Below, piece after piece: positions 9,612 through 59,772 of a DNA stretch of 64,000 nt (its first letter is position 1; each line of letters begins with the position of its first letter). Source of the DNA: a virus; IMG/VR virus record IMGVR_UViG_3300043411_001246, positions 7,458 through 71,457 of that record; one strand, given 5' to 3'. The position numbers and the translations under genes were made by a program. The notes beneath the pieces are model-generated. The model saw only the letters and a list, made by a program, of their open reading frames with translations, had not been told where the DNA came from and did no database searches.

Positions 9612-10223
9612 AGCGACGAGTTTCAGGCCGAGGCCAGGTACGAGCACGAGTCCACGGTGATGGTCTGGAGGGAGAGCGACGTGGCGCCGCCGTCACCCAT
9701 TCCGCCCAACGACGATGTGGGGTGGATGCTCTTGAGCACCATCGAGTCCAAGGTGCTGCGCGATGGCGTGCGTGCCGAGGTCTTGTGTACGTGGCGCCGT
9801 CGGCTGACCGCGCCGCGTCCCGGTGCCAAGCCGGTCAAACCGGCCAAGTCCAAGAGCAAAAAGAAGGCCGATGAACCTGTCGAGCCTGAAGACCCGTGGG
9901 CTCAAAGCGTCTGCCGCGGTGAGCCTCCGGTTCGAGAGCGTGGAACCCCTTGCCCGTCCAGTTCCAGAAGCAGCCTGACCATCGGCGGCCGAGAGGTCTC
10001 GGCGTATCTCGAACACATGGGCGGGATGGCAAGCGTTGTCGTCGCGCCGCCGGATTCGTCTGGCGTTGTCAGCAAGCCTCCCACGTTCAGCAACATGACG
10101 TTCGAGATGGACATGATCGTAAAAGGCGTGGAGCGCCTTGCCGATGGGGACATGGTGAAGGTGAGGCTCTACAACGAGAAGCCGACGGAGTGCGGCGTCA
10201 GAGGGGTCAACCGGATCTTCTGA
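9609..10223 (+). CDS. hypothetical protein
   Basis: Starts at the element ATG; its stop TGA is part of the next element. Confidence 0.65.
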   Translation: MSDEFQAEARYEHESTVMVWRESDVAPPSPIPPNDDVGWMLLSTIESKVLRDGVRAEVLCTWRRRLTAPRPGAKPVKPAKSKSKKKADEPVEPEDPWAQSVCRGEPPVRERGTPCPSSSRSSLTIGGREVSAYLEHMGGMASVVVAPPDSSGVVSKPPTFSNMTFEMDMIVKGVERLADGDMVKVRLYNEKPTECGVRGVNRIF

Positions 10224-10257
10224 CCCCTCGCCGGCCCGGCGTAAGGTCGGGCCCATG
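10220..10257 (+). promoter_or_regulatory. GACCCCTC leaderless promoter element
   Basis: CTGACC-16-TAAGGT-7-ATG(10255). Confidence 0.75.
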
Positions 10258-11148
10258 GGCGAGAACAGCGGAATCTCTTGGTGCCATCACACCCTGAACT
10301 GGTGGATGGGCTGCACGAAGGTCTCGGCGGGCTGCAAGCACTGCTACGCCGAGACGCTGGTAACCACCCGGATGCGGCTGCCGGTCTGGGGTGACAAGGC
10401 CGAACGGAAGGCCACGAGCGCATCGACGCGCAAGCAGGTCCACACCTGGAACCGCAAGGCCAGGGAGGCCGGCGAGCGGCATCGGGTCTTCTGCTCGTCC
10501 CTGTCGGACGTGTTCGAGGACCGGCCCGACCTGGCGCCGATGCGCGCCGAGTTGTTCGCGGCCATCGTCGCGTGTCCTGACCTGGACTTTCTGTTGCTCA
10601 CGAAGCGACCGGAAAACATGGTCCGGCTCGCGCGTGACGCCGGGTGGTCGGGCGCGTGGCCGTCGAACGTCTGGGCGGGTTGCACCGTCGAGAATCAGGC
10701 GATGTTCAGGGAGCGGGTGCCGCACTTGCTTGAGGTGCCGGCGTCGGTGCGGTTCCTGTCGTGTGAACCGCTGCTAGAGAGCATCGACCTGACGCTGGTG
10801 CAGGCCGGTGCCTACGGGGTCAATCCTCTGCACGACATCGGATGGGTGATCGTCGGTGGCGAGAGCGGGCCGGGGGCGCGCCCATTCGATCTGGAGTGGG
10901 CTCGCCAGATCCGGCACCAGTGCAACGCCGCGGGGACGGCGTTCTTTTTCAAGCAACTCGGGGCCCGCCCCACGACGCGACTGGAGAGGGACGAGGTTTG
11001 GCCGGGTCACTCGTTCGGTCAGGGGCCCGTGCAGTTTGATGGCGACGGCTTTGGCAACTATTCCGTGCGTGGCATCAAGGACCGCGCTGGTGCCGACCCC
11101 GCCGAGTGGCCGCTCGATCTGCGGGTGCAGGCGTTCCCCACGCGCTGA
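10255..11148 (+). CDS. phage Gp37/Gp68 (DUF5131) family protein
   Basis: ISWCHHTLNWWMGCTKVSAGCKHCYA, FCSSLSDVFE, LLTKRPE, RFLSCEPLL, WVIVGGESG. Confidence 0.92.
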   Translation: MGENSGISWCHHTLNWWMGCTKVSAGCKHCYAETLVTTRMRLPVWGDKAERKATSASTRKQVHTWNRKAREAGERHRVFCSSLSDVFEDRPDLAPMRAELFAAIVACPDLDFLLLTKRPENMVRLARDAGWSGAWPSNVWAGCTVENQAMFRERVPHLLEVPASVRFLSCEPLLESIDLTLVQAGAYGVNPLHDIGWVIVGGESGPGARPFDLEWARQIRHQCNAAGTAFFFKQLGARPTTRLERDEVWPGHSFGQGPVQFDGDGFGNYSVRGIKDRAGADPAEWPLDLRVQAFPTR

Positions 11149-11181
11149 CCCCTCGCCCGACTCTGGCAAGATCACACCATG
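11145..11181 (+). promoter_or_regulatory. GACCCCTC leaderless promoter element
   Basis: CTGACC-16-CAAGAT-6-ATG(11179). Confidence 0.75.
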
Positions 11182-11391
11182 ACCAAGCCAGAGCCCGCCC
11201 GCCTCATCCGGTCCGATGCGCGGTGGTGGTGCGCCCCCGCCCACGAGTGGACCCGCGAACAACGCCTCGCCACCCGCTACCCGACCCGGGACGCCGCCGA
11301 GAAGGCGCTGCTGTCGATGCTCAAGAGCAAGACTGCGGCGTTCGTCGGTAACGCGAGGATCGTCCGGCTGCGGGGCAAGGTGACCGCGTGA
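11179..11391 (+). CDS. hypothetical protein
   Basis: 70-aa ORF starting at the element ATG. Confidence 0.65.
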   Translation: MTKPEPARLIRSDARWWCAPAHEWTREQRLATRYPTRDAAEKALLSMLKSKTAAFVGNARIVRLRGKVTA

Positions 11392-11816
11392 GGCTCAACG
11401 TGCTGCAAGAGATGTTCGCCCGGGTGTCGGTGCCGCCGGGGTGCTGCGTGGACGTGCGCAAGAATATGGACAACGGCAACGCCTGGCATCGGTTCGAGGT
11501 GGGGTACTACTTCACCGACGAGGTGGCCCGGTGCCAGTTGTCGCCGCGGCAGAAACGCGCAGAGGAACACCGACGCCTCGGACAGTGCGAGCACTTCACC
11601 GACGCCTGGAAGTCGAGCGACCTGTGCGGCGGCACACCAAAGCCGCCGGGTGGTGACCCGGTGAACCGCCGCGTCCTCGCCAAGATCCGCGGCATGACCC
11701 CGGACGACGTGTTCGCCCTGTCGGTCCGGGTCGGCGTCCACAACCCGGACGGCACCCTGACCCCGGAGTACGGCGGCGCCGACCCCTCGCCAGACGGTGG
11801 CAAGGTGGGGCCATGA
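11388..11816 (+). CDS. hypothetical protein
   Basis: GTGA overlap; C-terminus reads through the next element (DPSPDGGKVGP). Confidence 0.55.
   Translation: MRLNVLQEMFARVSVPPGCCVDVRKNMDNGNAWHRFEVGYYFTDEVARCQLSPRQKRAEEHRRLGQCEHFTDAWKSSDLCGGTPKPPGGDPVNRRVLAKIRGMTPDDVFALSVRVGVHNPDGTLTPEYGGADPSPDGGKVGP
11779..11815 (+). promoter_or_regulatory. GACCCCTC leaderless promoter element
   Basis: CCGACC-16-CAAGGT-6-ATG(11813). Confidence 0.75.
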
Positions 11817-12106
11817 AAGTCTATCGCGTGGAGATCCGGTACGAGGTGTTCGTCTGCGCCCCGGACGAGTCCGACGCCGAGAAAGAGGTCCAGGACAACC
11901 GCCGGGAGATCGTGACCAGCGAGACGCCGCAGATCACGACCCTCGGCCCGCTCGAGCAGGTCGCCGCTGACGAGGGCCGGCAGATCCCGTGGGGCTGGCG
12001 TGACGAGGCCAACCCCGACCGCACCGTGGGCGAGTGGGTGGCGCTGGCGAAGGCCACCCCGCCCGCCGACTTGCGCCAGGTCACGCTGCCGGGGGTGGAG
12101 TCGTGA
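11813..12106 (+). CDS. hypothetical protein
   Basis: 97-aa ORF starting at the element ATG. Confidence 0.7.
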   Translation: MKVYRVEIRYEVFVCAPDESDAEKEVQDNRREIVTSETPQITTLGPLEQVAADEGRQIPWGWRDEANPDRTVGEWVALAKATPPADLRQVTLPGVES

Positions 12107-12852
12107 TCGGCGCCGTCCTGCACCTGTGGCAGCGCGCCGTGGACCGGCTGGGCGACGCCTTGGAGGGGCCCGAGATGGCGAGCCTCCGGGTCACGCTGGC
12201 GGCCCTGTCGGCCCGGGTGGCGGCGGCCGAGGGGGAGGCGGCGAGGCTGCTGGGCGAGTTGGCCAACGCCCACCGCGCGTGCGGCCATGCGCTCACAGTC
12301 GAGGCTGCGGCGACCGCGGAGGCGGTGATGGGGCGTGGTGCGGCGCAGGCCGAGGCCGAGAACCTGCGATGCGAGTGCGACGAGTTGCGGGCCGAGGTCG
12401 AGCGACTGCGCGCCGACGCAGAGGCGACGGCGGCCCAGTCGATTGCGGAATGGGGGCGACTCAAGGGGCGTGTGAACGAGGCCATGGATGCCTGCGATCA
12501 GATGGCCAAGGAGCGCGACGAGGCGCGGGCTGACGTTGCGACCGTCGTGGACGATTGCACCGAGGCTCTCAAGTTGCTGGCGGCGGTGCGCAAGGAGCGA
12601 GACGAGGCCCTGCAATGGCGCGGGGTGGCGGCCAGCGTCGAGCGAGAGGTGGCCGAGGACCGTGCGCGGTTGGAGGAGGCCATCCGGGAGCGGGACGACC
12701 TGCGCCGGCTGGTCCGCGCGTTCAAGGTGGCCGAGGACGCCTACTTCGAGGCCGAGGGGAACGTGGCGATTCTGGGCGCGGACAATGCCATGTGTATAGC
12801 CAAAGCCGACCTCTTCGCCGCTCTGCTTGCCGAGGGTGCCGGCGATGGCTGA
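12103..12852 (+). CDS. coiled-coil protein
   Basis: GTGA overlap; repeated KERDEA heptad pattern. Confidence 0.65.
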   Translation: MIGAVLHLWQRAVDRLGDALEGPEMASLRVTLAALSARVAAAEGEAARLLGELANAHRACGHALTVEAAATAEAVMGRGAAQAEAENLRCECDELRAEVERLRADAEATAAQSIAEWGRLKGRVNEAMDACDQMAKERDEARADVATVVDDCTEALKLLAAVRKERDEALQWRGVAASVEREVAEDRARLEEAIRERDDLRRLVRAFKVAEDAYFEAEGNVAILGADNAMCIAKADLFAALLAEGAGDG

Positions 12853-13024
12853 CTGCTTCGGCCTGCGCTTCGCCCGCTGCCGCCGCTTCCCGGCCGGGCT
12901 GTGCGAGGATTGGCGCTATCGTGCCGATGCCCATGCCTTCCGGCTGTCCGCGGACGGCTACCGCTGCCGGTGGGCCCGGGTGCGCCTGCGCGCGGTGGCG
13001 TGCGCTGACCCCTCGCCGCGGTGA
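12845..13024 (+). CDS. small hypothetical protein
   Basis: MADCFG...; ends inside the element (DPSPR). Confidence 0.45.
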   Translation: MADCFGLRFARCRRFPAGLCEDWRYRADAHAFRLSADGYRCRWARVRLRAVACADPSPR

Positions 13025-13042
13025 GGCAAGGTGGCGGGCATG
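13005..13042 (+). promoter_or_regulatory. GACCCCTC leaderless promoter element
   Basis: CTGACC-16-CAAGGT-7-ATG(13040). Confidence 0.75.
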
Positions 13043-13294
13043 GATCGACCACGCCGCCTGACCCACCACGAGCGACAGACGCTCATCAACGCCCGAGACG
13101 CCATGCGCCACGCCGCCGCCCAGCGCCGCCTCGACGGCCACGAGCTGCGCGCCCGGGACGCCGACCAGATCGCTGATGCCATCGACCGCGAGCTGGCCAC
13201 CGACCGTGAGGTACAGGAGCCGCCCGCGCCCCGCCCGAGCCCCAGCGGGGCCGAGGTGTGGATCGGTGACGACGACGATGGGGAGGTGGCGTGA
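13040..13294 (+). CDS. hypothetical protein
   Basis: Starts at the element ATG. Confidence 0.65.
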   Translation: MDRPRRLTHHERQTLINARDAMRHAAAQRRLDGHELRARDADQIADAIDRELATDREVQEPPAPRPSPSGAEVWIGDDDDGEVA

Positions 13295-13599
13295 TGGCGC
13301 GGGGGTTGGCGCTGTTGAACGACGTGGGCATATTCGCCGCGACGGCCCATGCCGTCCACACGAAGGACCGCGCCAGGCGAATCGGCATTGCCGCCGCCGG
13401 GCTTCGTGAATGCGCCGGTCGGATGCGGAACGGGCCGATCCTGTTGCCGGCGGTGTGGCAGCGCGAGGCCACGGCAGCGATGGGCCAATACGACCACGGC
13501 TCGCCGCTCTGGCGTCTGCTGGTGTGCATCGCGTCCGGCAAGGTCACCCGGGAGGACTTGCGGATCTTGGCCGAGGTCGTGGAGGCGCTGAATGGCTGA
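13294..13599 (+). CDS. hypothetical protein
   Basis: TGATG coupling. Confidence 0.55.
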   Translation: MARGLALLNDVGIFAATAHAVHTKDRARRIGIAAAGLRECAGRMRNGPILLPAVWQREATAAMGQYDHGSPLWRLLVCIASGKVTREDLRILAEVVEALNG

Positions 13600-13730
13600 C
13601 CTCTGCGTGACCCCCTCGCCTCGCCCTTGGGTCTACCGCTGGCGGGTGCTGCTGCTCGAAATCTGCTGCTTCCCGGGCCCCGTCATGTACGTCACGCTCC
13701 AGAGCGTCAGCGTCTCGCAGGTGCCGACAG

Positions 13731-14234
13731 ATGGCTAGCGCCCTGCTGGTCTGTGGCAGCCGCAGCCTCACCCGCGACCCGGAGGCGACCGCGTGGGCAA
13801 AGGGCGAGATCGAGGCGAGGGTGCGGGCCGAGGCGCCCGATCTGCTCATGCACGGCGCCGCCTACGGTCCTGACCAGTGGGCCGGTCAGTGCGCGAACGT
13901 GCTGGCCAACGAGGGGCGGCCGGTGCCGTTCGTCCACGCGGTCTACCCGCACGGGATCACGGTCGTGTGGGCCCGCGACCCGGACGGGCGCGGCCTGTGG
14001 TCCGGGCGGCACCCGTGGTCTGACCGCTTGCTCCAGTACGATACCGGCCCGTTTATCCGCAACGCCTACATGGTCAACGCCGTGGCCTACCTCGCCGCGC
14101 TCGGGTGCCGCGTGCTGGTCCTGGGCCTCGTGGACGCCACCAGCGCGACCCGAGGCACCGACCACACCCTGCGCCTCGCACGGGCCGCCGGGCTGACGGT
14201 GGAGCGGCTGGTGTGGGAGGGGCGGGCGCGCTGA
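13731..14234 (+). CDS. SLOG/YspA-like (DUF2493) protein
   Basis: LLVCGSRS..MHGAAYGPD..IRNAYMV..RGTDHT. Confidence 0.7.
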   Translation: MASALLVCGSRSLTRDPEATAWAKGEIEARVRAEAPDLLMHGAAYGPDQWAGQCANVLANEGRPVPFVHAVYPHGITVVWARDPDGRGLWSGRHPWSDRLLQYDTGPFIRNAYMVNAVAYLAALGCRVLVLGLVDATSATRGTDHTLRLARAAGLTVERLVWEGRAR

Positions 14235-14267
14235 CCCCTCTGCAGGTGGGCGCAGAGTGGCGGCATG
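14231..14267 (+). promoter_or_regulatory. GACCCCTC leaderless promoter element
   Basis: CTGACC-16-CAGAGT-6-ATG(14265). Confidence 0.75.
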
Positions 14268-14927
14268 GCTGAAGAGACATCCTTGCTGGACACCATCCGG
14301 GCGTTGAACACCATTGGCGTGTTTACCGAAAATGCCAGCCCCAAGGCGATGAAGGTGCGGGCTAGGACCATCGTGGAGCAACTCAAGCCCATTGCGCGGT
14401 GGGCCACGGATCAGGTGCATGGTTACTGGATAGATGGCGAAGATGACTCCGACTACTGTCGCAAGCACGCCATCGCTGAGCTGAACAAGCTGCGAAGGAT
14501 GGGGGGTCGCAACCTGCGCCTTGGCGGTGGCTACGGCGGTGGTGAGAGCGACTCGCCGCGATTCTGCGAGACGTGTGGCGCGCCTCTCACATGGAGCCCC
14601 ACAGACAGTGGCGTTGGGCAAGAGATGGAGCACTTTGCCAGTCGCCAGCCAAAGCTCCTGGACCCGGATAGCGCCCAAGAAATTGTCGATATTCTTGAAC
14701 TTGCTGCCGAGTGCGACGACGTAGAGCCCGAAGAGTTCGAGGCGGTCTGCATCTGGCTAGAACAGAGCCTGCGCGATGGGGCCATTGAGATGCCTCGGTC
14801 GCGCGGTCGGTGCCGGATGACCCTCGTGGTTGCGCGAGACCGCAAGCGCCGCTGTCGTCGCCGTCGCATCGTCCGTGTCACCTGCCCGGCCCCTGATGCA
14901 CGATGCGCTGACCCCTCTCCCGGCTGA
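14265..14927 (+). CDS. hypothetical protein (CxxH/CxxC zinc-binding-like, lower GC)
   Basis: DYCRKH and FCETCG; ends inside the next element (DPSPG). Confidence 0.65.
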   Translation: MAEETSLLDTIRALNTIGVFTENASPKAMKVRARTIVEQLKPIARWATDQVHGYWIDGEDDSDYCRKHAIAELNKLRRMGGRNLRLGGGYGGGESDSPRFCETCGAPLTWSPTDSGVGQEMEHFASRQPKLLDPDSAQEIVDILELAAECDDVEPEEFEAVCIWLEQSLRDGAIEMPRSRGRCRMTLVVARDRKRRCRRRRIVRVTCPAPDARCADPSPG

Positions 14928-14944
14928 GGCACTGTGCCGCCATG
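14908..14944 (+). promoter_or_regulatory. GACCCCTC leaderless promoter element
   Basis: CTGACC-16-CACTGT-6-ATG(14942). Confidence 0.75.
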
Positions 14945-15766
14945 GCCAAAGCCCCCGACCTCTCCCCGCGCGCCCTGTCCCTCGTGGACAAGCTCCTTGC
15001 CCGCCTGCCCGCCAGCGTGTCCGACCTGGAGACGTGGTGGGAGCGACAGGGTAAGGTGACCCGCCTCGAACTGCGCCGCCTGTTGCGCCAGCTCGACGGC
15101 GACCGCCTGCTGTACGACCGCGACGCCGGGACGGTGCGGCCGATGGGGGCCAAGTCCGCCGCGGTGCCGCCGACGACGATGCGCGACGTGGAGACCGCCG
15201 CCAAGGCTGTTCACACCATGAGGGCCCCGCCATTTGCCCCGCCACGATTCGTGCTCTCACCCAAGGCAAACCGGGCACCGTCCGCGCCTGCTACCACCGT
15301 GGCCGAGGCCCCGACCCCAGACCCGGCGGCCCCGGCGTCGGTGCCCGCGTTCACCATGCCGCCGATCCCCGCCCAGACGCTGCCGTCGTCGGTGCTGGAC
15401 GCCGGCATCCTCACCATCGGTCGCACGGACAAGCCAGCGGGCCCCGTCACGGCGATGGTCGGCGGCGTCACCATGTCCGGGTCGGCCGCCGCGGTGAAGG
15501 CCGCGACCGAAGCCTATCAGCGCGCCCTGCTGTCCCCACCCACGACACCGCGCCCGCCCGCCAAGCCTCGCCAGTCCAGGCCGGTCACCGGGTCCGTGTC
15601 CGAGCGGGTCAGAGCGTCGGTGTGCCGCAAGCCCGGCACCGTGGGCGAGGTGATCGCGCGCTTCCCCGACGTGAACGAGAACACCATTCGCGGCGCCCTC
15701 GGCACCCTCAAGGCCAAGGGGCTGGTCGGTCACACGGGCGGCAAGTACGGGGCGCCTCGTGGCTGA
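14942..15766 (+). CDS. protein with N- and C-terminal winged-helix-like domains
   Basis: TVGEVIARFPDVNENTIRGALGTLKAKGLV wHTH-like C-terminus; Pro/Ala linker. Confidence 0.6.
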   Translation: MAKAPDLSPRALSLVDKLLARLPASVSDLETWWERQGKVTRLELRRLLRQLDGDRLLYDRDAGTVRPMGAKSAAVPPTTMRDVETAAKAVHTMRAPPFAPPRFVLSPKANRAPSAPATTVAEAPTPDPAAPASVPAFTMPPIPAQTLPSSVLDAGILTIGRTDKPAGPVTAMVGGVTMSGSAAAVKAATEAYQRALLSPPTTPRPPAKPRQSRPVTGSVSERVRASVCRKPGTVGEVIARFPDVNENTIRGALGTLKAKGLVGHTGGKYGAPRG

Positions 15767-16250
15767 CCGCATCGTCCTTGGCGTGGACCCCGGCAGCAGC
15801 GACCCGCGCAAGGTCGGCCGCCACGGGTGGGCGTTGCTGCTGTGCCGCCCCGGTCGGCGCCCGGTCTTCCGAGGGTGCGGTCGCGACAAGGTGGAGCCGC
15901 TGGATCTGCTGCGGCAACATGGTTACCTGGACTTGCTCGCCGTCGAGGTGCCGCAGGTCGTCCACCGGATCGAGGCCGTGCGCGGCGTGCTGGATACGCG
16001 CGGATCGGCGGGGACATTCGCGGGCGCCGCATCGGGCATCGGCCTGCCTCTTGTCGAGATGTCGCCGGGGGATTGGCGCTACCGTGTCTGCAAGGCCCGC
16101 AGCCCGAGCGACGCCATGGTCAAAGAGGCAATCCTGGCCATGATCGAGGGGTGGCCGCAGATCAGCAACAACCACGAGCGCGACGCCGCCGGGGTGGCGC
16201 TGGCCGCGTCGATGGTCCCGCCGGTCTTGATCGGGATGGCGAAGCGATGA
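15759..16250 (+). CDS. RuvC-like Holliday junction resolvase
   Basis: IVLGVDPG, LAVE, MSPGDWR, NNHERDAAGVAL acidic catalytic pattern. Confidence 0.75.
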   Translation: MADRIVLGVDPGSSDPRKVGRHGWALLLCRPGRRPVFRGCGRDKVEPLDLLRQHGYLDLLAVEVPQVVHRIEAVRGVLDTRGSAGTFAGAASGIGLPLVEMSPGDWRYRVCKARSPSDAMVKEAILAMIEGWPQISNNHERDAAGVALAASMVPPVLIGMAKR

Positions 16251-16612
16251 CCTTGCAGGTCCACACCGCCCGGATGGGCCTGCGCGACCCGGACATCTTG
16301 CCGGTGACCCGCAAGATCGTCGTGGACCCGGCCGGCGTCCTCTTCGCCCCGTCGGCCGCCATCCTCGACCGCGCCCTTGCCGAACGCCGCGCCGGTCGGT
16401 TGGAGGCCCACTGGCCCGCCTACGTGGCCGCGTACGAGGCTGAGATGCGCGCCTGCTACCGGGCACACCGGGCCGCGTGGGATGCGCTGCTGGCGCGGTC
16501 CCGCGTGGTGCTGCTGTGCTTCTGCACCGACGCCACCCGCTGCCACCGCACCCTCCTCGCGGGGCTGCTGGCGAGGTGTGGCGCCGACAACCGCGGGGAG
16601 GTGACGCCGTGA
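16247..16612 (+). CDS. DUF488-like protein
   Basis: FAPSAAIL..YEAEMR..VVLLCFC..CHRTLLA. Confidence 0.7.
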   Translation: MTLQVHTARMGLRDPDILPVTRKIVVDPAGVLFAPSAAILDRALAERRAGRLEAHWPAYVAAYEAEMRACYRAHRAAWDALLARSRVVLLCFCTDATRCHRTLLAGLLARCGADNRGEVTP

Positions 16613-17115
16613 AGCCCGATCAATACTTTGCGCTGGTCGTGGGAGGATTCCAACCTTCCCCGCTGCTGATCGAGGTGAGCCGACCGGACGCGGACCCGGA
16701 GCGCCTGAGCGCCGTACTTCTCTCGTTCGAGACCGGCGACCTTGCCCGAGAGCGTGGCCAGGCCGAGGCCGAGCGCATCCGGTCGGCCGTCCTGCGCAAC
16801 CCGAACCTGCCGCGCGCCGAGTTCTGGGACTACATGGCCAGCGGCTCCCCGGACATCTGGGTCAACCCGGCCATGGACCTGTTTCTGCTGGAAAACCCGC
16901 GCCCGTTCGATGTGCTGTTGCCGTACCTGTGCCGCGCCGCCATGCGCCTGGTTGACCCACCAATGGCCCGGATGAGCGCGGACTGGTGGCCGAAGTTGGC
17001 CGCCGAGCACCTGCGCGCCCACCGCGTCGGCGGTCACCCGTTCTGGACCAAGTGGGAGGCGACGTTGCGGGACCGGATCGACGCGCCGACCCCCTCACTG
17101 GAGGCGTCAAGATGA
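16609..17115 (+). CDS. hypothetical protein
   Basis: GTGA overlap; ends inside the element. Confidence 0.6.
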   Translation: MKPDQYFALVVGGFQPSPLLIEVSRPDADPERLSAVLLSFETGDLARERGQAEAERIRSAVLRNPNLPRAEFWDYMASGSPDIWVNPAMDLFLLENPRPFDVLLPYLCRAAMRLVDPPMARMSADWWPKLAAEHLRAHRVGGHPFWTKWEATLRDRIDAPTPSLEASR

Positions 17116-17123
17116 GAGCCATG
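17086..17123 (+). promoter_or_regulatory. GACCCCTC-type leaderless promoter element
   Basis: CCGACC-16-CAAGAT-7-ATG(17121); core has one extra C. Confidence 0.65.
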
Positions 17124-17381
17124 AGCGACGACCCCGAACGCCCGCCCCTCACCCTGATCCGCGGTGGCAAGGCCGGCCCCGGCCCCGCCCGCGCCCGGCT
17201 GAACCTGGACGGCGCCCCGGTGCGGGTCCGCGTCGAGATCGCGCCCGACGGCCGCATGGGCGTCGTGGTGGGGTTCGACCACCCGCGCGCGTTCCTGACC
17301 TGGGCCCTGACCCCGGAGGGCGCGCACCAGATGGGCGAGCAGATGGTCAGCGCCGCCTACGCCGCCGGGTGGGAGCCATGA
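17121..17381 (+). CDS. hypothetical protein
   Basis: MSDDPERPPLTLIRGG... Confidence 0.65.
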   Translation: MSDDPERPPLTLIRGGKAGPGPARARLNLDGAPVRVRVEIAPDGRMGVVVGFDHPRAFLTWALTPEGAHQMGEQMVSAAYAAGWEP

Positions 17382-17782
17382 GGGCCGCCACCCTGTCGGC
17401 GGGCAGCCTCGCCCGGCTACGCCCGTCCGACCACCCGCACCACGTCCACTCGGCCGAGCACCTGGCCGCCCTCGTCGCCGTCAACGCCGCGGCCGTGGCG
17501 CTGACCGAGGTGTTCTGGCCAGAGCCCGGCCAGCCCAGTCCGGACCCGGCTGCGGCCATGGACCGGCTCATCGACGCCCTGGACACCCTGGACGACCCGG
17601 GAGCGTGCGCAGGGTGGCCCCTGCCGGCGCAGCCCGCCGACCGCGCCGCCTTGTGGGCCATCGTGACCGAGGCGCGCCGGCTGCGTGCGCAGGGGAAGGC
17701 CGCCCACGGCGCCGACCGAGCGGAGTGGACCGCGGAGATGTTCGCGACGATGGCGCGGCTGTTGGAGCTGGTGTCGCCATGA
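17378..17782 (+). CDS. hypothetical protein
   Basis: ATGA overlap. Confidence 0.6.
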   Translation: MRAATLSAGSLARLRPSDHPHHVHSAEHLAALVAVNAAAVALTEVFWPEPGQPSPDPAAAMDRLIDALDTLDDPGACAGWPLPAQPADRAALWAIVTEARRLRAQGKAAHGADRAEWTAEMFATMARLLELVSP

Positions 17783-18273
17783 CGGGGCCGACCCACCGCG
17801 ACCTGTGCATCCTCGCCGGCAGGTGGCTACGCCGCCGCGGGTGTTCGGTCGTGCTCGTGGACGTGCGGACCAACCGGACATCGGAGCAACCCGACGCCAT
17901 CGGCTGGCAGTACGGGTTTCATTCTCTGTTGGTCGAGGCCAAGACCTCGCGCGCCGACTTCTTCCACGACGCCAAGAAGTGGCACCGTGTCGAGGGTGGC
18001 CACATGGGGCAGCAGCGGTGGTTCCTGGCGCCGCGCGGCCTCGTCACCGCAGCCGAGGTGCCCGAGGGCTGGGGCCTGTTGGAGGTCCGTGGCTCCAAGG
18101 TGTTCGTGGCCAAGGACGCGCCAGAGCGGGACTTTGACCCGAGGCTGTTGCGCAACGAGATGCCGTTGATGGTGGCGCAGATCGAACGGGTACAGCAGGG
18201 GCGCCCCACCCACGTCCTGCCGCTGACCGGCGAGCCTGCCGACGTGGACGGTGTGCAAGAGGCGACGCCATGA
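17779..18273 (+). CDS. PD-(D/E)xK nuclease-like (MmcB-like) protein
   Basis: EQPDAIGW..LVEAKTSRADF..MGQQRWFL..EVPEGWGLL. Confidence 0.75.
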   Translation: MTGPTHRDLCILAGRWLRRRGCSVVLVDVRTNRTSEQPDAIGWQYGFHSLLVEAKTSRADFFHDAKKWHRVEGGHMGQQRWFLAPRGLVTAAEVPEGWGLLEVRGSKVFVAKDAPERDFDPRLLRNEMPLMVAQIERVQQGRPTHVLPLTGEPADVDGVQEATP

Positions 18274-18626
18274 CGGGCCGGGTCCACACCCCGAACGGTC
18301 TGCCGGTCACCTGCGTCCTGTTCGACGGCACCGAGCTGGAGTGCGAGCACGGCGACCACCCGGACTACCTGTTCCCGGTCACGGTCGAGTTCACCGGGTC
18401 ACGCGAGGGGCTGCATGATTTCGAGTGGCAACCGGAGACCCATGCGCTGATCTACACCGACGGGCGCATCGCGGTGACGATGCACGAGTGCTGCTATGCG
18501 ACGTGGTTGCTACCGGAGGGCGAAATGCGCGACGCCGACATACGCGGCGAGTGGCGCCTGTCCCTGGCGTCGGTGGCGGCGATAGCGGCGCATGTCGCCC
18601 GTCGGCCTGACCCCTCTCCCGGGTGA
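18270..18626 (+). CDS. hypothetical protein
   Basis: ATGA overlap; ends inside the element (DPSPG). Confidence 0.65.
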   Translation: MTGRVHTPNGLPVTCVLFDGTELECEHGDHPDYLFPVTVEFTGSREGLHDFEWQPETHALIYTDGRIAVTMHECCYATWLLPEGEMRDADIRGEWRLSLASVAAIAAHVARRPDPSPG

Positions 18627-18643
18627 GGCACCCTCTGGGCATG
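18607..18643 (+). promoter_or_regulatory. GACCCCTC leaderless promoter element
   Basis: CTGACC-16-CACCCT-6-ATG(18641). Confidence 0.7.
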
Positions 18644-19390
18644 ACCCCATCCCCCACCGCTACCCCGCCCGAGGTCTACGCCGTCTGGATTGACGTGGAG
18701 ACCGACGGCCTTGACGAACAGACCGGCAACCTGTTGGAGGTCGGCATCGTCCTGACCGACCGCCACCACGTCGAGATCGCCCGCCGGTCGTGGGTGCTGC
18801 ACTACGCCGGCACCCCGCCCGAGCCGGTCCTGGGCTGGCACACCCGCTCCGGTCTGCTGGCCGAGTGCCTGGCCTCACCCCTGACCCGCGAGGCGGCCGA
18901 GACCGAGATCGTCGCGTGGCTGTGGGCGCACGGCGGCAAGGAACGCGGCTTCGCCGGGCCGCTCCTCGGGGGCCGCAACGCCCACTTTGACCGGCGGTGG
19001 CTGCGTGCCCACCTGCCCCGGGTGGTGGCCCTCTTGAGCCACCGTGGCCTCGACGCCACCACGATGCGCGTGGAGATGCAGGAGGCGGGCATCACCGTGG
19101 CCAAGGGCGAGGCCCACCGCGCGCTGGCCGACCTCGACAACGACCTGGCCATCGCGCGCCGACACCGGCAGGCGTTGCGTGATGGCGTGGACGGGCTGGC
19201 ACTGGCGGCGAGCCTGCCGACCTGTGAGACGTGCGGGGCGGTGGCGACGCATTGGGACAGCGGGACGCTTCGCCTCGGCCGGCTCGTGTACGCCTGCCAG
19301 TCTCATCGGTGGGGCGAGTGCAACGACCCGGTGCCGTGGGACGCCGAGGCCGTCGCGCGCCTGACCCCTCGGCCGGGTAGGGCAGGGTGA
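18641..19390 (+). CDS. oligoribonuclease-like DEDDh 3'-5' exonuclease
   Basis: WIDVETDGLD, LLEVG, NAHFDRRWL, HRALAD; C-terminal CxxC. Confidence 0.85.
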   Translation: MTPSPTATPPEVYAVWIDVETDGLDEQTGNLLEVGIVLTDRHHVEIARRSWVLHYAGTPPEPVLGWHTRSGLLAECLASPLTREAAETEIVAWLWAHGGKERGFAGPLLGGRNAHFDRRWLRAHLPRVVALLSHRGLDATTMRVEMQEAGITVAKGEAHRALADLDNDLAIARRHRQALRDGVDGLALAASLPTCETCGAVATHWDSGTLRLGRLVYACQSHRWGECNDPVPWDAEAVARLTPRPGRAG

Positions 19391-19397
19391 GGCCATG
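19361..19397 (+). promoter_or_regulatory. GACCCCTC leaderless promoter element
   Basis: CTGACC-16-CAGGGT-6-ATG(19395). Confidence 0.75.
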
Positions 19398-19991
19398 AGC
19401 AACGACAAGATGCAAGCGTGGCGCACCGTCTCCGACGAGGTGATGTCCACGTACGCAGACTCGCCCATGGGCACGACCCACGCCGTCGAGATGGCCGCCG
19501 AGAAGGCGTACGACCTCGGCGCGCACCACGGCCGGAAAGAGGCCCTGGAATCGGGCGAGTCGTGGGCGAAGTTTCGCGCGGACATGGGGCCCGGTGTTGG
19601 GCCGGCGTGGCGGGTCAGCGAGATTGACCCGCGCGGCAACGGCGTGCGCCTCGTTCTCTGGGGTACGGGCGTGAGCGTTTCTTACGAGCGCGGCCTGCGA
19701 CAACTCTTGAACCAGAGCCTCCCCGTGGACGTGACCGCCTACCCGGCCGCCCCGTCGCGCCCCGTCGTGGACACCGCCCGCGCCGAGGGCTTCGCCGCCG
19801 GCCTCACCCGCGCCCGTGACCTCCTCGCCGCCCACGCCGACGAGTCCGAGGCCCTGGCGCGCGGGCAGGCCACCGAGGCCGAGCAAGCGCAGACGCGCGC
19901 CGCCGCCAGCGCCACCCGGGCCGCCGTGCAGCGGGGCGGGGTGGACCTGTTGAACCGGGAGATCGCCGACTTGAAAGGGGAGGGGAAGTGA
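19395..19991 (+). CDS. hypothetical protein
   Basis: Starts at the element ATG. Confidence 0.7.
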   Translation: MSNDKMQAWRTVSDEVMSTYADSPMGTTHAVEMAAEKAYDLGAHHGRKEALESGESWAKFRADMGPGVGPAWRVSEIDPRGNGVRLVLWGTGVSVSYERGLRQLLNQSLPVDVTAYPAAPSRPVVDTARAEGFAAGLTRARDLLAAHADESEALARGQATEAEQAQTRAAASATRAAVQRGGVDLLNREIADLKGEGK

Positions 19992-20305
19992 CCCGCACCG
20001 ACCTCGCCCTGACCGCCGCCACCGCCGCCCTGTTCCGCGGCAAGGCCGCCGAGTTGCGCGCCCTGGCCGAGACCCTGACCCCGGCCGACCACACCCGGGC
20101 CATCGCCCTCGCGATCCGCGCGGCCCGCCTCGCCTCCCGGGTGCAGACCGTGGCCGAGCAGGTCGCCGGCTTCCTGGTGATGGCGCCCGCCCGCGCCGGC
20201 CGCACCCCAGACGGACCCGGAGACGCGCCCCAGCCCGCCGGCTTCCCCGCGGTCGAGCGGTGTCCGGTGTGCCAGGCCCGCTACCCGCACCGGGAGGGGA
20301 TGTGA
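19988..20305 (+). CDS. hypothetical protein
   Basis: GTGA overlap. Confidence 0.55.
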   Translation: MTRTDLALTAATAALFRGKAAELRALAETLTPADHTRAIALAIRAARLASRVQTVAEQVAGFLVMAPARAGRTPDGPGDAPQPAGFPAVERCPVCQARYPHREGM

Positions 20306-20700
20306 TGGAATCCGGGGAACGCAAGGCACTCGCCGACGCGGCGCACTTCCGCCTCTTGGCCGCGACCACCTACGTCAAGGGGCACATCAAACACGCGGGT
20401 TGTCTGGCGGTAGCGGCGCGCCTTGAAGAGATCGCCGTCGAGTGCGCTCTCAAGGGCCTCGGCCTGTCCGACCTGTACGCGCCCACGCCCGGTGACGCGG
20501 TGGCGCTGCGGGGCGGGGCGCTGGCCGAGGCCGAGGCGTGGGATCTGCTGGCCTTCGATGAGGCCAAGTTCGATGCGGCCGAGCGGAACGCGCAGCGCAT
20601 CGCCATGCGTGACCCGACCCGCGCCGCGCGCATCCGTGACCTTGTGGGCCGGATGCGGGCCAAGACGGTGGCACACGTCGAGCGGGAGGCGGGGCTGTGA
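20305..20700 (+). CDS. hypothetical protein
   Basis: TGATG coupling. Confidence 0.55.
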   Translation: MESGERKALADAAHFRLLAATTYVKGHIKHAGCLAVAARLEEIAVECALKGLGLSDLYAPTPGDAVALRGGALAEAEAWDLLAFDEAKFDAAERNAQRIAMRDPTRAARIRDLVGRMRAKTVAHVEREAGL

Positions 20701-20930
20701 CCCCCACCGACCCCGACGCCCCGCCCGCGTCCGCGGTGGCCCTGACGCTGGCCGCGGTGCTGGACGCCGCCGCCATCGCCGAGAGGTGGGCGCGCGAGCA
20801 CGACGAGACCGCCAGGACCGACCCGAGCGTCCGGGCCCGCGTGGACGCCACCCGCCACGCCAGCGACCTGCGCCGGGCCGCGTCCACCCTGCGCGACGAG
20901 GCGACGCGGCGCCGCCGGGGGTCGCCGTGA
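20697..20930 (+). CDS. hypothetical protein
   Basis: GTGA overlap. Confidence 0.55.
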   Translation: MTPTDPDAPPASAVALTLAAVLDAAAIAERWAREHDETARTDPSVRARVDATRHASDLRRAASTLRDEATRRRRGSP

Positions 20931-21739
20931 GGCTCATCGTCACGCAGCACGCCCTCGCCCGGTTCGTCGAGCGGGTGGCGCCCGGCATGACCCTGGACGA
21001 GGCCCAGTCCTGGCTCGACGCCCACGCCCACCACGCCACCCCGCTGCCGGCCCGTACGCGCCGCGGACAGCGCCAGTGGTACCTGCCCACCCCGTACGGC
21101 CGCGACGCGGTCCTGGTGACCAAGGACGACCCCGGCGGGGTGCTCGTGGTGGTCACCGCCGGGTGGTTCGAGCACGAGGCCGACCCGGACCCGGACGAGG
21201 TGCCGCGCCCGACGGTGGCGCTGGTGCCGCCTCCGGTACCCACGCCCGCCAAGCCTGCGCCGACCCCGGCCAAGCCCGCCCCCGCGTGGGCCCGCCCGGC
21301 GTGGCTGCCGCCGCGCCCCGCCGACCTGCCGGCGCCGCCGGGTGCGCTGCGGGTGGGGCTCGACGCCGAGGACCAGACGCTTGCCCTCGGGCTGCTGTCT
21401 TACGACGACCTGATCGGCTGGCAGACCTACCTGAAAGCCTGCTTCAGCGCCTACACCCGGCGCGGGCTGCCGGTGCCTGCGGTGGCCGTCGAGGCACGTC
21501 GGGCCGTCAAGGAGGCCGCCAAGCAAGCCCTCGACGCCCGCATCGGGGCCCGGGAGGCGGCGACCCGGGCCACCGTGGACAGCCATGGTCGGCGGCTACG
21601 GTTCGATTTGGACCACCTCGTCGTGGCAGTCGGGGAGGTGCTGCGCGAACGGCTGGGCGAGCTGGAAAGCGCGGACATCTTCTCCGAGGCCAAGGCGCGC
21701 ATGGTGGCCGCCTCTGCTGCGAGGAAGGCCGCCGAATGA
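20927..21739 (+). CDS. hypothetical protein with possible RNase-fold N-terminal domain
   Basis: LIVTQHALARFVER..LVVVT motif; Pro-rich linker; stop is the element TGA. Confidence 0.6.
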   Translation: MRLIVTQHALARFVERVAPGMTLDEAQSWLDAHAHHATPLPARTRRGQRQWYLPTPYGRDAVLVTKDDPGGVLVVVTAGWFEHEADPDPDEVPRPTVALVPPPVPTPAKPAPTPAKPAPAWARPAWLPPRPADLPAPPGALRVGLDAEDQTLALGLLSYDDLIGWQTYLKACFSAYTRRGLPVPAVAVEARRAVKEAAKQALDARIGAREAATRATVDSHGRRLRFDLDHLVVAVGEVLRERLGELESADIFSEAKARMVAASAARKAAE

Positions 21740-21773
21740 CCCCTCGCCGCGGCCGGGTAGGGTGACGGGCATG
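21736..21773 (+). promoter_or_regulatory. GACCCCTC leaderless promoter element
   Basis: ATGACC-16-TAGGGT-7-ATG(21771). Confidence 0.75.
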
Positions 21774-22202: not shown

Positions 22203-22219
22203 GGCAGAGTGAGGGCATG
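22183..22219 (+). promoter_or_regulatory. GACCCCTC leaderless promoter element
   Basis: CTGACC-16-CAGAGT-6-ATG(22217). Confidence 0.75.
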
Positions 22220-55445: not shown

Positions 55446-56060
55446 ATGGACGCCGACCTCCCCACCCTCACCCCGAGCGAGACCATGACCGACGACCTAC
55501 CGCCCGATTCTCCCTCGCCCAACTCGATCATGGGTGGCGACGAGTCCACCCCGGTGCGGGAGTTCGACCGGAAGATGACCGCGCCGCGCACCCATGACGG
55601 CCGGATGCGGGTGATGACGGAGCACCTGCGCGCCCTGACCGAGCAGCAGATCCGCACCCGCAACGAGGTCGGCATGGAACTGCGCCGACAGGCCGGATTG
55701 TTCAGCAACTTCGTCCACGAGAGCGTCGGCTTCGCGGTGGAAAACGGCAAGCGCCACGACCACAACGACGCCGCGATCAAGGCCCTCACCGCGTCGGTCG
55801 GCGCCCTGGCCGAGCAGAACGGGCAGATTGCGCGCGAGCTGGCCAGCGTCCGCACCGAGGCCGCCGCCGAGCGCACCGCCCGCGTGCAGCAGGACAGCGT
55901 GCATGAGGCCGAGATCACGGGCGTCCAGCGCGCCATGACCGCCACCGCCTCCGAGGTCGCCATCGTCCGTGCCAAGGCCGTCGGCGCCAAGGGGCTCGGC
56001 TGGGCGCTCGGTCTCGGCGCCATCGAAGCCCTCAAGTACCTCCTCTCCCACCTCGGGTGA
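55446..56060 (+). CDS. coiled-coil protein with C-terminal TM (lysis region)
   Basis: Heptads followed by GLGWALGLGAIEALKYL. Confidence 0.6.
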   Translation: MDADLPTLTPSETMTDDLPPDSPSPNSIMGGDESTPVREFDRKMTAPRTHDGRMRVMTEHLRALTEQQIRTRNEVGMELRRQAGLFSNFVHESVGFAVENGKRHDHNDAAIKALTASVGALAEQNGQIARELASVRTEAAAERTARVQQDSVHEAEITGVQRAMTATASEVAIVRAKAVGAKGLGWALGLGAIEALKYLLSHLG

Positions 56061-56064
56061 CCCC

Positions 56065-56439
56065 ATGGACGACCTCTCGCTGATCCTGACCCTGGCCGAG
56101 CGCCACCCCTACCTCGCCGCGGGTGCCGCCCTCGCCGTGGCCCTGTGCGCCGCCGTGGTGGCGCTGGCGCAGGTGTACCCGGGCGAGGACTGGTGCCGCG
56201 CCCACCCGCGCCTCTTTGCGGTGCTGCGGCTCTGCCGGGCCGTGGCGCCGTGGTTGCTGAAGGCGGCCGACCGGCTGCGCGAGGCCCGCAGTACACCGCT
56301 CGCGCAGGCCGCCATCGCGCGGGCGTTCGACAAGGCCGCGCCGACGCCGCCCGCGGTGGACCGCCCGACCGAGCCGCCGACCGGGCCGGACACCGACCCG
56401 AGCCCGCCCAGCCTCGGCGGCAACGCGCGCCGGGTCTGA
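56065..56439 (+). CDS. holin-like membrane protein (putative)
   Basis: Hydrophobic N-terminal helices, small size, start of the lysis region. Confidence 0.45.
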   Translation: MDDLSLILTLAERHPYLAAGAALAVALCAAVVALAQVYPGEDWCRAHPRLFAVLRLCRAVAPWLLKAADRLREARSTPLAQAAIARAFDKAAPTPPAVDRPTEPPTGPDTDPSPPSLGGNARRV

Positions 56440-56472
56440 CCCCTCTCCCGCGTGGCGCATCCTCGCACCATG
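56436..56472 (+). promoter_or_regulatory. GACCCCTC leaderless promoter element
   Basis: CTGACC-16-CATCCT-6-ATG(56470). Confidence 0.75.
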
Positions 56473-57366: not shown

Positions 57367-57711
57367 ATGCGCCGTCTCCTCGCCCTCGTCCTCGTCGCCT
57401 GCCACCCGTCCACCCCGGAGCCCTCGGCCGTGACCGAGGCTCGCGTGCTGGTGGCCGCTGCCGGGCCCGTGCTCGCGTCCGCGCGCCCGGCCTGCGCGGC
57501 GCTACCTCCCGACCGGGTGGAGGCGTGTGGGGCCGCCGTGGACGCCCTGGCGGCGGTCGTGGCGACGATGGGGCCGCTGCTCGACCCGTGCCCCGGCGAC
57601 CCGGCCGACGAGGAACGGCAGGCGTGCGAGGTCGAGCGGGTAGACCGCGTGCGCGCCACCCTGCCCGAGCTGCGCCAGCGGGTGACCGCGGCGGCTGCGG
57701 TGGTGCGGTGA
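57367..57711 (+). CDS. lipoprotein (possible spanin component)
   Basis: MRRLLALVLVAC lipobox in the lysis region. Confidence 0.65.
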   Translation: MRRLLALVLVACHPSTPEPSAVTEARVLVAAAGPVLASARPACAALPPDRVEACGAAVDALAAVVATMGPLLDPCPGDPADEERQACEVERVDRVRATLPELRQRVTAAAAVVR

Positions 57712-57744
57712 CCCCTCTCCCGCGTCAGGCAGGATGGTGGCATG
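57708..57744 (+). promoter_or_regulatory. GACCCCTC leaderless promoter element
   Basis: GTGACC-16-CAGGAT-6-ATG(57742). Confidence 0.75.
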
Positions 57745-58391: not shown

Positions 58392-58645
58392 CCCAAGATG
58401 ATTTCACCGCCCGTGCCCTGGCCGCGTTCGAGTCCGTCGTGCCGGTGACCGACCGGATGCGCGAGGCCCTGGCTGCCGCCCTGCGCGCCTCGTGGGCGGC
58501 CACCCCGGCGCCCGTGTGGGGACCGGAGGCGCCGACGCTGCCGGCCAAGGGGGACCGATGGCGGGCCCTGTCCGACCGGGTGGACACCTTGCCCGATGTC
58601 GAGGTGTCCGCGCTGGCGTGTGGGCCCGGCGAGGGCGAGTCGTGA
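58388..58645 (+). CDS. hypothetical protein
   Basis: MTQDDF..., ATGA overlap. Confidence 0.5.
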   Translation: MTQDDFTARALAAFESVVPVTDRMREALAAALRASWAATPAPVWGPEAPTLPAKGDRWRALSDRVDTLPDVEVSALACGPGEGES

Positions 58646-58826
58646 AGCACATGATCGCCAGCCTCGTCTGCTTCGTGCTGCTGGGCCTCGCCGTCTACTT
58701 CACCCCGGACCCGAAGCCGCGACGGAGACGCAAGCCGTGACCCTCGAACACCGCGCCGCCGACGCGCTGGTGTGGCTCGTGATCGTCGCCGCGCTGTTCC
58801 TCGGCGGCACCTGCCTGCGCCCCGCG

Positions 58827-58867
58827 CCGACCCCCTCACCTGCACCCGTACCCTCCCGGACACCATG
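58827..58867 (+). promoter_or_regulatory. GACCCCTC-type promoter element
   Basis: CCGACC-16-TACCCT-10-ATG(58865); core has one extra C. Confidence 0.55.
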
Positions 58868-59080
58868 ACCCACGGCATACGACGCCACGACCTGCCCGCG
58901 CTCTGGCTCACCCGCACCCCGACCGGCCCGGAGTGGGCGCCGTGGGGCCCGGCCGCCTACGCCTTCCCGACCGAGGCCGACGCCGCGCGCAAGGCCAGCG
59001 ACCTCGGCGTACTCCACGCCAGCATCGCACCGTGCCCCTCGCCGGCTGCGGCGTCCGTGCCGCCGGGGGTGCCGTCGTGA
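58865..59080 (+). CDS. hypothetical protein
   Basis: MTHGIRRHD..AYAFPTEADA. Confidence 0.55.
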   Translation: MTHGIRRHDLPALWLTRTPTGPEWAPWGPAAYAFPTEADAARKASDLGVLHASIAPCPSPAAASVPPGVPS

Positions 59081-59739
59081 CGTGGGGCGCACACGTTGTG
59101 GACAGCGTGCTCGCCGGGGCGTTCTGCGACGCCGCGCGCAGCCTCGCCGGGCTGTCGTGGGGCAACCCGGCCACCCGCGCGGAGATGGCCCAGCGGCTCG
59201 CCCCCAAGGACCGCCCGGACGATGCGCTGGCGATGAGCGCGGCGCAGAGCAACTGCGCCATCGCGACCTGCGCGGCCCTGTACGAGACCGGGGTGGACGG
59301 GCTGGTGCGGGGCTTCAGGAACAAGCCGGCGTGTGACCCCCTGCGCGAGCCGCGGGTCAGGCGGTACGACGCCGTGATCTACCTCGGTGTCCTGGCCGAC
59401 CAGACCGGCACCCGGCGGCCCCCGTGCGCGGGCGCCGACCTGTTGCCCGGGTCGTGGCTGCTGATCGGCGGCGGCCCGGCCTACGGTGGCGGGGCGCATG
59501 TCGTGATGGTCGTCGGGGTGCGCGACGACGGCACCATCGACACCGTGGAGGGCGGCAAGCTCGACCCCGGCAACCCGCGCACGGGGGCCGAGAAATGCAC
59601 CGCCATCCTGGCCGACCACCGGGAAGTCTATCGCGAGCGTGACGGGTCCTTCTGGATGCGTGACGCAGGCACCACGAGGCCGGGCCGGCGCGTCATCTAC
59701 TGGTGCTGGGTGGGCGACCTGCCGACCCTGCCGGGCTGA
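59077..59739 (+). CDS. CHAP-like peptidoglycan hydrolase (putative)
   Basis: SNCAIA (Cys) and AHVVMVVG..TIDTVEGG (His/Glu) arrangement. Confidence 0.55.
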   Translation: MTWGAHVVDSVLAGAFCDAARSLAGLSWGNPATRAEMAQRLAPKDRPDDALAMSAAQSNCAIATCAALYETGVDGLVRGFRNKPACDPLREPRVRRYDAVIYLGVLADQTGTRRPPCAGADLLPGSWLLIGGGPAYGGGAHVVMVVGVRDDGTIDTVEGGKLDPGNPRTGAEKCTAILADHREVYRERDGSFWMRDAGTTRPGRRVIYWCWVGDLPTLPG

Positions 59740-59772
59740 CCCCTCACCGGGCGGGCGCAGAGTGTGGCCATG
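59736..59772 (+). promoter_or_regulatory. GACCCCTC leaderless promoter element
   Basis: CTGACC-16-CAGAGT-6-ATG(59770). Confidence 0.75.

Follow-up and report, generated by a model that had tools for sequence, protein, structure and literature searches.

A repeat of ~33 nucleotides (nt), built on the box GACCCCTC, stands directly before the start codons of many genes of an uncultured phage, and was studied in a window of 64,000 nt, i.e., bases 7458–71457 of the 71,457-base IMG/VR virus record IMGVR_UViG_3300043411_001246. The element is most likely a bacterial promoter of the −35/−10 type, from which the message would begin at the start codon itself as a leaderless messenger RNA (mRNA). The account that we favor is a probable one as a whole: the element would be a leaderless promoter, the stop codons and similar protein tails that it lends to upstream genes would be by-products, and the early region would be a mosaic with joints at gene borders of all kinds. 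An initial annotation had seen in the element a possible recombination joint at which promoter-plus-gene units are gained, lost and shuffled, in the manner of an integron-like array, and this proposal withstood the comparison with related phages only in part.

The box GACCCCTC is present in 23 copies in the window (21 on the plus strand, two on the minus strand) versus 4.9 expected, and a count of 23 was reached in none of 100 shuffles. The full form was found in 18 plus-strand copies, with an ATG 32–33 nt past the G, and a weight matrix (score of at least 12) detected 21 sites in the 71.5-kb record versus none in shuffled sequences. The ~33-nt consensus reads cTGACCCCTC-N12-YAnnnT-N6/7-ATG or, in a finer form, cTGACCCCTC, ten free bases, G-G/C-Y-A-n-n-n-T, six or seven bases and ATG. 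The spacings were followed in 35 copies from this phage and from G1 (G labels denote IMG/VR phage records and L labels metagenome loci). The distance from box to hexamer is 12 nt in all 35, and the sole variable spacing is that from hexamer to ATG, which is 6 nt in 25 copies and 7 nt in 10. Positions A2 and T6 of the hexamer are invariant, as is a G two bases 5′ of it; in −10 elements, positions 2 (A) and 6 (T) are the ones that matter most. The cTGACC of the box lies at the place expected of a −35 hexamer, with a spacer of 16 nt to the −10-like hexamer, and transcription would start 6–7 nt past the latter, at the A of the ATG. Two traits of leaderless transcription from sigma-70 promoters were looked for and found, namely the spacing of a −10-like hexamer to the ATG and an AUG start without a Shine-Dalgarno sequence. 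From this anatomy we infer promoter activity and a leaderless start.

The genes behind the element differ from the others in how they begin. All 19 copies with an ATG at the fixed distance are co-directional with the following gene. ATG is the start of 18 of 18 element-led genes versus 12 of 29 other genes (p = 2e-5), the remaining 17 of which start with GTG or TTG, and GGAGG precedes the start in none of the 18 versus nine of the 29 (p = 0.008). No element-led gene has a well-placed ribosome site, and most non-element genes overlap the preceding stop by 4 or 8 nt, the starts at such coupled borders being deduced ones. Since element-led genes are ATG-only and devoid of GGAGG, and the others are coupled, the stretch from 9.6 to 27.6 kb reads as 15 short operons with 24 inner coupled borders, a putative leaderless promoter standing at the head of each operon. 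Fifteen copies lie between 9.5 and 24.5 kb and three between 56 and 60 kb, and a weight-matrix scan of the full record detected none in 24448–56438, the stretch of the structural genes. In all, ~20 short operons, most of them early and a few in the right arm, would have the element at their head. The copies and their neighboring genes, with the open reading frames (ORFs) that end in them, are listed below; elsewhere in the text a copy is named by a coordinate inside it (e.g., 22185 for the copy at 22183–22219), and GC stands for the content of guanine plus cytosine.

9575–9611, plus strand: copy with a variant hexamer region (GAGATGGT); leads gene 9609–10223; the preceding ORF ends at 9568, with 11 nt left to the box
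10220–10257, plus strand: copy; its TGA (10221–10223) stops gene 9609–10223; leads the DUF5131 gene 10255–11148
11145–11181, plus strand: copy; its TGA (11148) stops the DUF5131 gene; leads gene 11179–11391; the similarity of L254 and L251 begins here
11779–11815, plus strand: copy (CCGACCCCTC, without the TGA); the upstream gene runs through to ATGA (11816), with the tail DPSPDGGKVGP; L254 has two extra element-led genes
13005–13042, plus strand: copy; the upstream gene stops inside it (13024, DPSPR); border kept in L251, L231 and L255
14231–14267, plus strand: copy; its TGA (14234) stops gene 13731–14234; leads the low-GC gene 14265–14927
14265–14927, plus strand: accessory gene between two copies; GC 0.621; absent from L255 and L253
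14908–14944, plus strand: copy; the upstream gene stops inside it (14927, DPSPG)
18607–18643, plus strand: copy; the upstream gene stops inside it (18626, DPSPG); leads the exonuclease-like gene 18641–19390
19361–19397, plus strand: copy; gives the upstream gene the tail LTPRPGRAG, with the stop at 19390
21736–21773, plus strand: copy (ATGACCCCTC); its TGA (21739) stops gene 20927–21739
22183–22219, plus strand: copy; the upstream gene stops inside it (22202, DPSAR); leads gene 22217–22612; both are skipped in contigs of two other runs
23099–23136, plus strand: copy (GCGACCCCTC); the upstream gene stops at ATGA (23137); identical in G6 and G8 and one base off in G7, with a different downstream gene
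23755–23791, plus strand: copy with a variant hexamer region (GAGACGGT); its TGA (23758) stops gene 23495–23758; chimeric copy in G6, G8 and L232
24160–24196, plus strand: copy; its TGA (24163) stops gene 23789–24163; leads gene 24194–24472, absent in L226
24446–24482, plus strand: copy; gives the upstream gene the tail LTPLRTGA, with the stop at 24472; same promoter variant before a different gene in G7
56436–56472, plus strand: copy in the right arm; its TGA (56439) stops gene 55969–56439; leads a DNA methyltransferase-like gene
57708–57744, plus strand: copy (GTGACCCCTC); its TGA (57711) stops the methyltransferase-like gene; leads a JAB-domain gene; the similarity of L236 begins at 57705
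59736–59772, plus strand: copy; its TGA (59739) stops gene 58933–59739
62257–62294, minus strand: copy (GCGACCCCTC ... CGTAGATT) lacking an ATG at the usual spacing; a leadered form

Minus-strand boxes with a hexamer and no ATG at 6–7 nt were seen at 62257–62294 of the window and at record bases 5762 and 2510, which suggests that the same promoter type exists also with a leader; the copy at record base 5762 has GAGGA downstream and an ATG 12 nt past the hexamer. At 10201–10229, in the end of gene 9609–10223, an inverted box (GAGGGGTC) is separated by 13 nt from the box of copy 10222, which it precedes, and the two could form an 8-bp stem. The visibly low GC of 14265–14800, pointed out in the initial annotation, was borne out, with gene 14265–14927 having the lowest GC among 47 tabulated genes (0.621; third position 0.70), followed by gene 9609–10223 (0.631). 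A protein search with 14265–14924 returned only its own cluster.

The same annotation had proposed that the TGA of the element is the stop of nine upstream genes, and that at least eight further upstream ORFs continue into the element, terminating there or at its ATG, with similar tails. All nine stops proved to be the TGA of cTGACCCCTC (10223, 11148, 14234, 21739, 23758, 24163, 56439, 57711 and 59739), and eight of the other endings were likewise found. The upstream ORFs of the 18 copies, recognized by their high third-position GC, thus fall into nine that end at the box TGA, five that read the box as D-P-S (four stopping at a TGA 15 nt into the element, at 13024, 14927, 18626 and 22202, and one at ATGA, 11816), three that read it as (L)TP (19390, 24472 and, at ATGA, 23137), and that of copy 9577, which stops 5′ of the box. 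The 9:5:3 split over the frames does not differ from even use (chi-square p = 0.19). In 42 sequences with 124 elements, 96 of them with a clear upstream ORF, the box TGA is the stop of 58 ORFs; a further 17 terminate inside the element, 16 reach the ATGA and 5 stop before the element begins, so that 91 of 96 end within the element, although many of these copies are homologous and the counts are not independent.

The tails themselves follow from the genetic code. GAC CCC TCN gives D-P-S, CTG ACC CCT gives L-T-P, and GGC AAG GTN, in the hexamer, gives G-K-V; as the box is translated in two frames, unrelated proteins acquire similar tails. The tails DPSPDGGKVGP, DPSPEGGKVGA and DPSAGGGKVTG recur in other records, and the pattern DPSPxxGKVxP is the literal translation of box plus hexamer. 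Where genes are packed without spacers, a promoter of 33 nt must reach into the 3′ end of the gene before it. The T-G-A of the putative −35 box then closes one frame, and in the other two the box is translated up to a stop in the spacer, a stop in or after the hexamer, or the ATGA. Whether the tails depend on the element, a check suggested with the initial annotation, could be answered from contigs of two other runs in which 22179 is joined to 22610 via eight other letters. There, element 22185 and gene 22217–22612 are missing, and with them the DPSAR tail of the upstream gene, so that tails come and go with the element. They are best read, together with the stops, as by-products of tight packing rather than as a function. 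A design with stops in all three frames was considered and dropped, all three being present in only 2 of 18 copies.

Judged from its genes, the phage would be an uncultured myovirus of ~70% GC (that of the window) with Mu-like head and baseplate genes; the record is classed as linear and estimated to be ~82% complete. Pfam matches include a Mu-type portal, a Mu-like prohead protease, the baseplate proteins gpP and J, DUF5131, a D12-class methyltransferase and a JAB domain, and PHROGs, scanned with 56 translations, added a large terminase and a replication initiator. The majority of the early proteins have no family in the Pfam and PHROGs scans. Two large ones, encoded at 3872–6289 and 8057–9568 and 805 and 503 residues long, matched nothing in Pfam when the threshold was relaxed to E 0.01; the former shares a 109-residue segment with G1 at 39%. 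No close isolated phage emerged. Megablast of 9000–27000 against 50,697 phage records gave no match and an Rfam scan of the same stretch no family. The matches of the tail sheath protein among isolated phages are all below 30% identity, which permits no host inference, and a pattern scan of genome contigs for the element gave, among the matches listed, single ones in unrelated taxa, uninformative on host or prophage.

Pattern scans located the element in the IMG/VR records G1, G6, G7, G8, G9 and G10, with 3–8 copies each in G6–G10. G1 has 86.7 kb with terminal repeats, 74% GC and 23 exact boxes, 21 of them with a start codon at the usual distance; its tail genes share 40–75% protein identity with those of this phage, and seven early genes are common to both in a different order. 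The element is also carried by 40 metagenome loci, ~20 of which resemble the early region at 67–98% identity, and it is missing from phages that are closer relatives by their terminase (83%). A degenerate copy (CACCCCTG ... GGTAGGCT ... ATG) heads a gene on the reverse strand of G6 at ~1701–1733 (L208), so that counts of exact boxes miss weaker copies. Parts of 13000–22900 are present in 20 listed runs from 10 studies (freshwater, groundwater, wastewater, aquatic), and the share present is 0.43–0.44 in many listed runs, as expected if a common core is combined with differing accessory genes; freshwater and wastewater sites with 43–80% of the sampled words are among them.

The relatives, all of them metagenome assemblies, were compared with the window, as were contigs of four runs, and the relatives revealed four clean events with both joints in copies of the element. 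L255 corresponds to the window minus 14265–14927, with the joint within the shared gcgCTGACCCCTCt; its junction has the 30 nt that precede copy 14233 and one box, after which the sequence goes on as at copy 14910 (spacer, hexamer and the gene behind it), and L253 has the same order in a more diverged form. L254 contains two extra element-led genes at 11781, where in the window one gene ends at 11816 and the next starts at 11813; the joint is in the shared GGCAAGGTG, and the window looks like L254 after an exchange within GGCAAGGTG. L226 is without 24194–24472, which is present in L229, and its copy is chimeric, starting like 24162 and ending like 24448. In L251, 9609–11148 is replaced by two other element-led genes. 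Finally, two upstream genes, A (ending at 23758) and B (in G7 and L229), and two downstream units, copy X with a relative of 23789–24163 and copy Y with another gene, exist in all four combinations (G0/L226, L229, G6/G8/L232 and G7), with an X/Y chimera in G6, G8 and L232. The joints 9607-to-10219 and 10252-to-11143 were not counted, as their 34-letter side is itself a copy of the element.

The proposal that promoter and gene move as one unit did not hold consistently. Three joints lie exactly at the ATG. Copies 22185 and 23101, both unchanged in G6, and copy 23757, unchanged in L226 and L229, have behind them a gene that is different or only 35% identical; here the promoter stays with the upstream gene. 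Copy 23101 remains with its upstream gene in G6, G7 and G8 while the downstream gene differs from the ATG on. The promoter therefore does not always travel with the gene that it leads. On the reverse strand of G6 (141–368; L208), a gene that is 40% identical to gene 23495–23758 is inserted between promoter 22185 and the homolog of 22217–22612, from which it appears that paralogs move within the region.

A further hypothesis makes the element a recombination hot spot of the kind described for the PeSLs (promoter-early stem-loops) of T4-type phages, with exchange between copies as the main route by which genes enter, leave and move, also across distant phages. It draws on the four events above, on the chimeric copies in G6/G8/L232 and L226, on the free combination of two upstream genes with two downstream units, on the presence of the element in G0, G1 and G9, which otherwise share few early genes, and on the like pattern presented for PeSLs (PMC2839356). 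We nevertheless hold it to be rather unlikely. Homologs of 40 genes between 8057 and 27635 were mapped in all relatives, and each border was scored by whether the neighbor was kept. Of the informative element borders, 14 of 15 are broken in at least one relative, versus 20 of 21 other borders (Fisher p = 1.0; three others had no informative relative), a test that also scores length differences of >60 nt inside divergent genes (e.g., border 11388) and thus overestimates breakage for either kind of border. Ends of similarity (at least 80% over at least 100 nt, away from contig ends) number 49 when redundant ones are removed; 24 of them lie inside genes, and the 15 element borders account for 12 and the 24 other borders for 13. 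This amounts to 0.8 ends per element border versus 0.54 per other border (binomial p = 0.22), both classes being far denser than gene interiors. A hand list of 19 events has 13 of 38 joint ends at element borders versus 38% expected. Crossovers at element borders range from −37 to +5 relative to the ATG, and the identity between copies is just 9–18 nt.

Gene gains and losses away from the element are of the same kind. Gene 17779–18273 is cut out precisely from one non-element border to the next, the joint leaving 10 letters that could belong to either flank, and L225 has insertions of 700 nt and 240 nt at coupled borders. Genes 13592–13738, 16609–17115, 20302–20700 and 22794–22952 are absent or replaced in relatives, L238 and L248 are without 21006–22634, with both joints off the element, and L249 and L241 have ~970 nt extra at border 15759, an insert with its own element mid-way. 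A length polymorphism with no relation to the element is seen at 12506–12591, where gene 12103–12852 is shorter by 84 nt, in frame, in contigs of two other runs; 9 letters there fit either side.

Taken from these comparisons, the early region appears to be a dense mosaic, with joints in one relative or another at almost all of its gene borders, and the element appears to join in recombination in proportion to its share of the borders, with no privilege as a joint. The suggestion that the element is a recombination joint thus stands insofar as whole genes were gained, lost or replaced with both joints in copies, leaving chimeric copies, and fails insofar as other borders break as often; breakpoints of synteny in relatives do fall at the element in some cases, and equally at borders that have none. 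As to the mechanism, we infer that at element borders the 9–18 nt of identity between copies would serve as the crossover, as in PeSLs, and that short repeats at overlapping stop/start sites, or filler letters, would do the same at other borders; no site-specific recombinase would be involved. Exchange at the element would, by this analogy, be the PeSL mechanism in kind.

Several points weigh against the favored account. A scan of 9000–27000 for promoters of the E. coli type gave no sites. The first base of the hexamer is C in most copies, commoner than T, which is unusual for a housekeeping sigma factor, and the conservation of the 10-nt box goes beyond what a −35 hexamer requires. The comparison of element borders with others is low in power (15 versus 24 borders), and chimeric assembly at shared repeats is not fully excludable in metagenome assemblies; joints that recur across data sets are those of L255 and L253, of G6, G8 and L232, and of L238 and L248. 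A literature search on repeated leaderless promoters in phages found no description of this element.

The box may, additionally or instead, be bound by a phage regulator. An explanation that would make it primarily such a site, either for an activator overlapping the −35 or as a stoperator-like repressor site, with a regulatory reason for its spread across borders, is compatible with the promoter reading, but as the primary role we consider it improbable. It would account for the near-invariance of all ten bases of cTGACCCCTC and for the mostly C-first hexamer, suggestive of a weak −10 in need of help, and it is favored by a 36-nt two-copy repeat with the box near the divergent region (584–619 and 1446–1481) and by a helix-turn-helix protein (62296–62889, minus strand) common to G1 (64%) and G9 (43%). 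Stoperators of Cluster A mycobacteriophages are many asymmetric sites of one orientation at gene borders that are bound by the phage repressor, and the orientation and placement of the element, compared here from sequence alone, fit this description. The fixed distances to the −10-like hexamer and the ATG, the ATG-only starts and the lack of ribosome sites are, however, traits of a promoter and not of an operator alone, and no regulator could be tied to the box. The two copies of the 36-nt direct repeat are 97% alike, start with the box (CCCGACCCCTC), continue differently (CCCGGCCGGTGCCTACCCCTGCCC) and have no ATG at the fixed distance; they lie near the switch between leftward and rightward genes, and a regulator site is possible there.

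That a site-specific recombinase uses the element as an attachment site to capture promoter-plus-gene cassettes, as in an integron, would suit the many single-gene units, set off by a repeat that always points the same way, and the accessory gene of odd composition between two copies, yet it is highly improbable, since no integrase, resolvase or transposase domain was found in 95 translations (Pfam) or 56 (PHROGs) of the ~82% complete record, no consistent hairpin exists (mean folding-energy z −0.39; below −2 in 4 of 18 copies), joints are spread from the 5′ edge as far as the ATG, every unit has a promoter-like element of its own and indels are equally common without the element. The absence of a recognizable integrase from the window had already been remarked in the initial annotation, which otherwise favored an integron-like array. 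Terminator-like sites are at chance level (6 versus 4.5 expected), with none at the element. The likeness to integron arrays is that of a row of one- or few-gene units with one repeat, one orientation and accessory genes of odd composition; integrons differ in their integrase, their folded attC with a fixed crossover and their promoterless cassettes read from a common promoter, none of which was encountered in this array of a phage early region.

Among the known systems closest to the leaderless promoter proposed here are the PeSLs. They were described in T4-type phages as a repeated early promoter motif with a stem-loop, ~100 bp in length and AT-rich (Arbiol et al. 2010, PMC2839356; Comeau et al. 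2014, PMC4122927), and genes flanked by two copies in one phage were reported to correspond to a single chimeric copy in a relative (PMC2839356). In both systems a repeated promoter motif, putative in the present case, borders small accessory genes in plastic regions and starts at the upstream stop codon, and in both, indels or replacements are bounded by copies and leave a chimeric copy behind (here, four clean events and two chimeric copies). The present element differs in being ~33 nt long and GC-rich, without a terminator or the stable stem-loop that serves PeSLs as terminator or attenuator, and in having no ribosome site, with the ATG directly after it, so that the mRNA would be leaderless. 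Moreover, the phage is not T4-like, with its Mu-like head and baseplate genes, and joints are no commoner at the element than at motif-free borders.

Further comparable systems are morons and the short conserved boundary sequences found at the gene borders of lambdoid phages. Element 22185 with gene 22217–22612, and likewise gene 14265–14927, resemble morons in being extra DNA with its own putative promoter between two genes of a relative, and the short shared sequences at the borders act as joints like the lambdoid boundary sequences. Unlike in morons, no terminator closes the unit, and one promoter is reused ~20 times. Short conserved repeats just 5′ of start codons, at many borders of a phage and its relatives, are also shared with two other systems, the intergenic repeats of halovirus HF2, which carry AT-rich archaeal promoters (Russ et al. 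2021, PMC8707807), and the start-associated sequences of Cluster K and Cluster EF actinophages, which are located at the ribosome site (PMC7302621). The supply of stops and tails, or the marking of indels, is not reported for these in the portions of the two papers that are used here.

In the data compared here, the repeat does not surpass an ordinary overlapping stop/start site as a joint, which is a caution against calling every row of repeat-bounded genes a capture system. If the role in exchange is true, the element would provide a compact natural set of ~20 graded leaderless promoters for a high-GC host. A broader proposal, which we put forward tentatively and think more doubtful than the account above, is that the 33-nt leaderless promoter is a joint common to distant phage lineages of one high-GC host group, where exchange at its edges or inside it moves single genes, and would be a stem-loop-free counterpart of the PeSLs outside the T4-like phages. 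The idea behind the PeSLs is that conserved regulatory motifs help phages to trade genes, and such a role in exchange would extend it from the AT-rich T4-type phages to high-GC phages with another promoter design.

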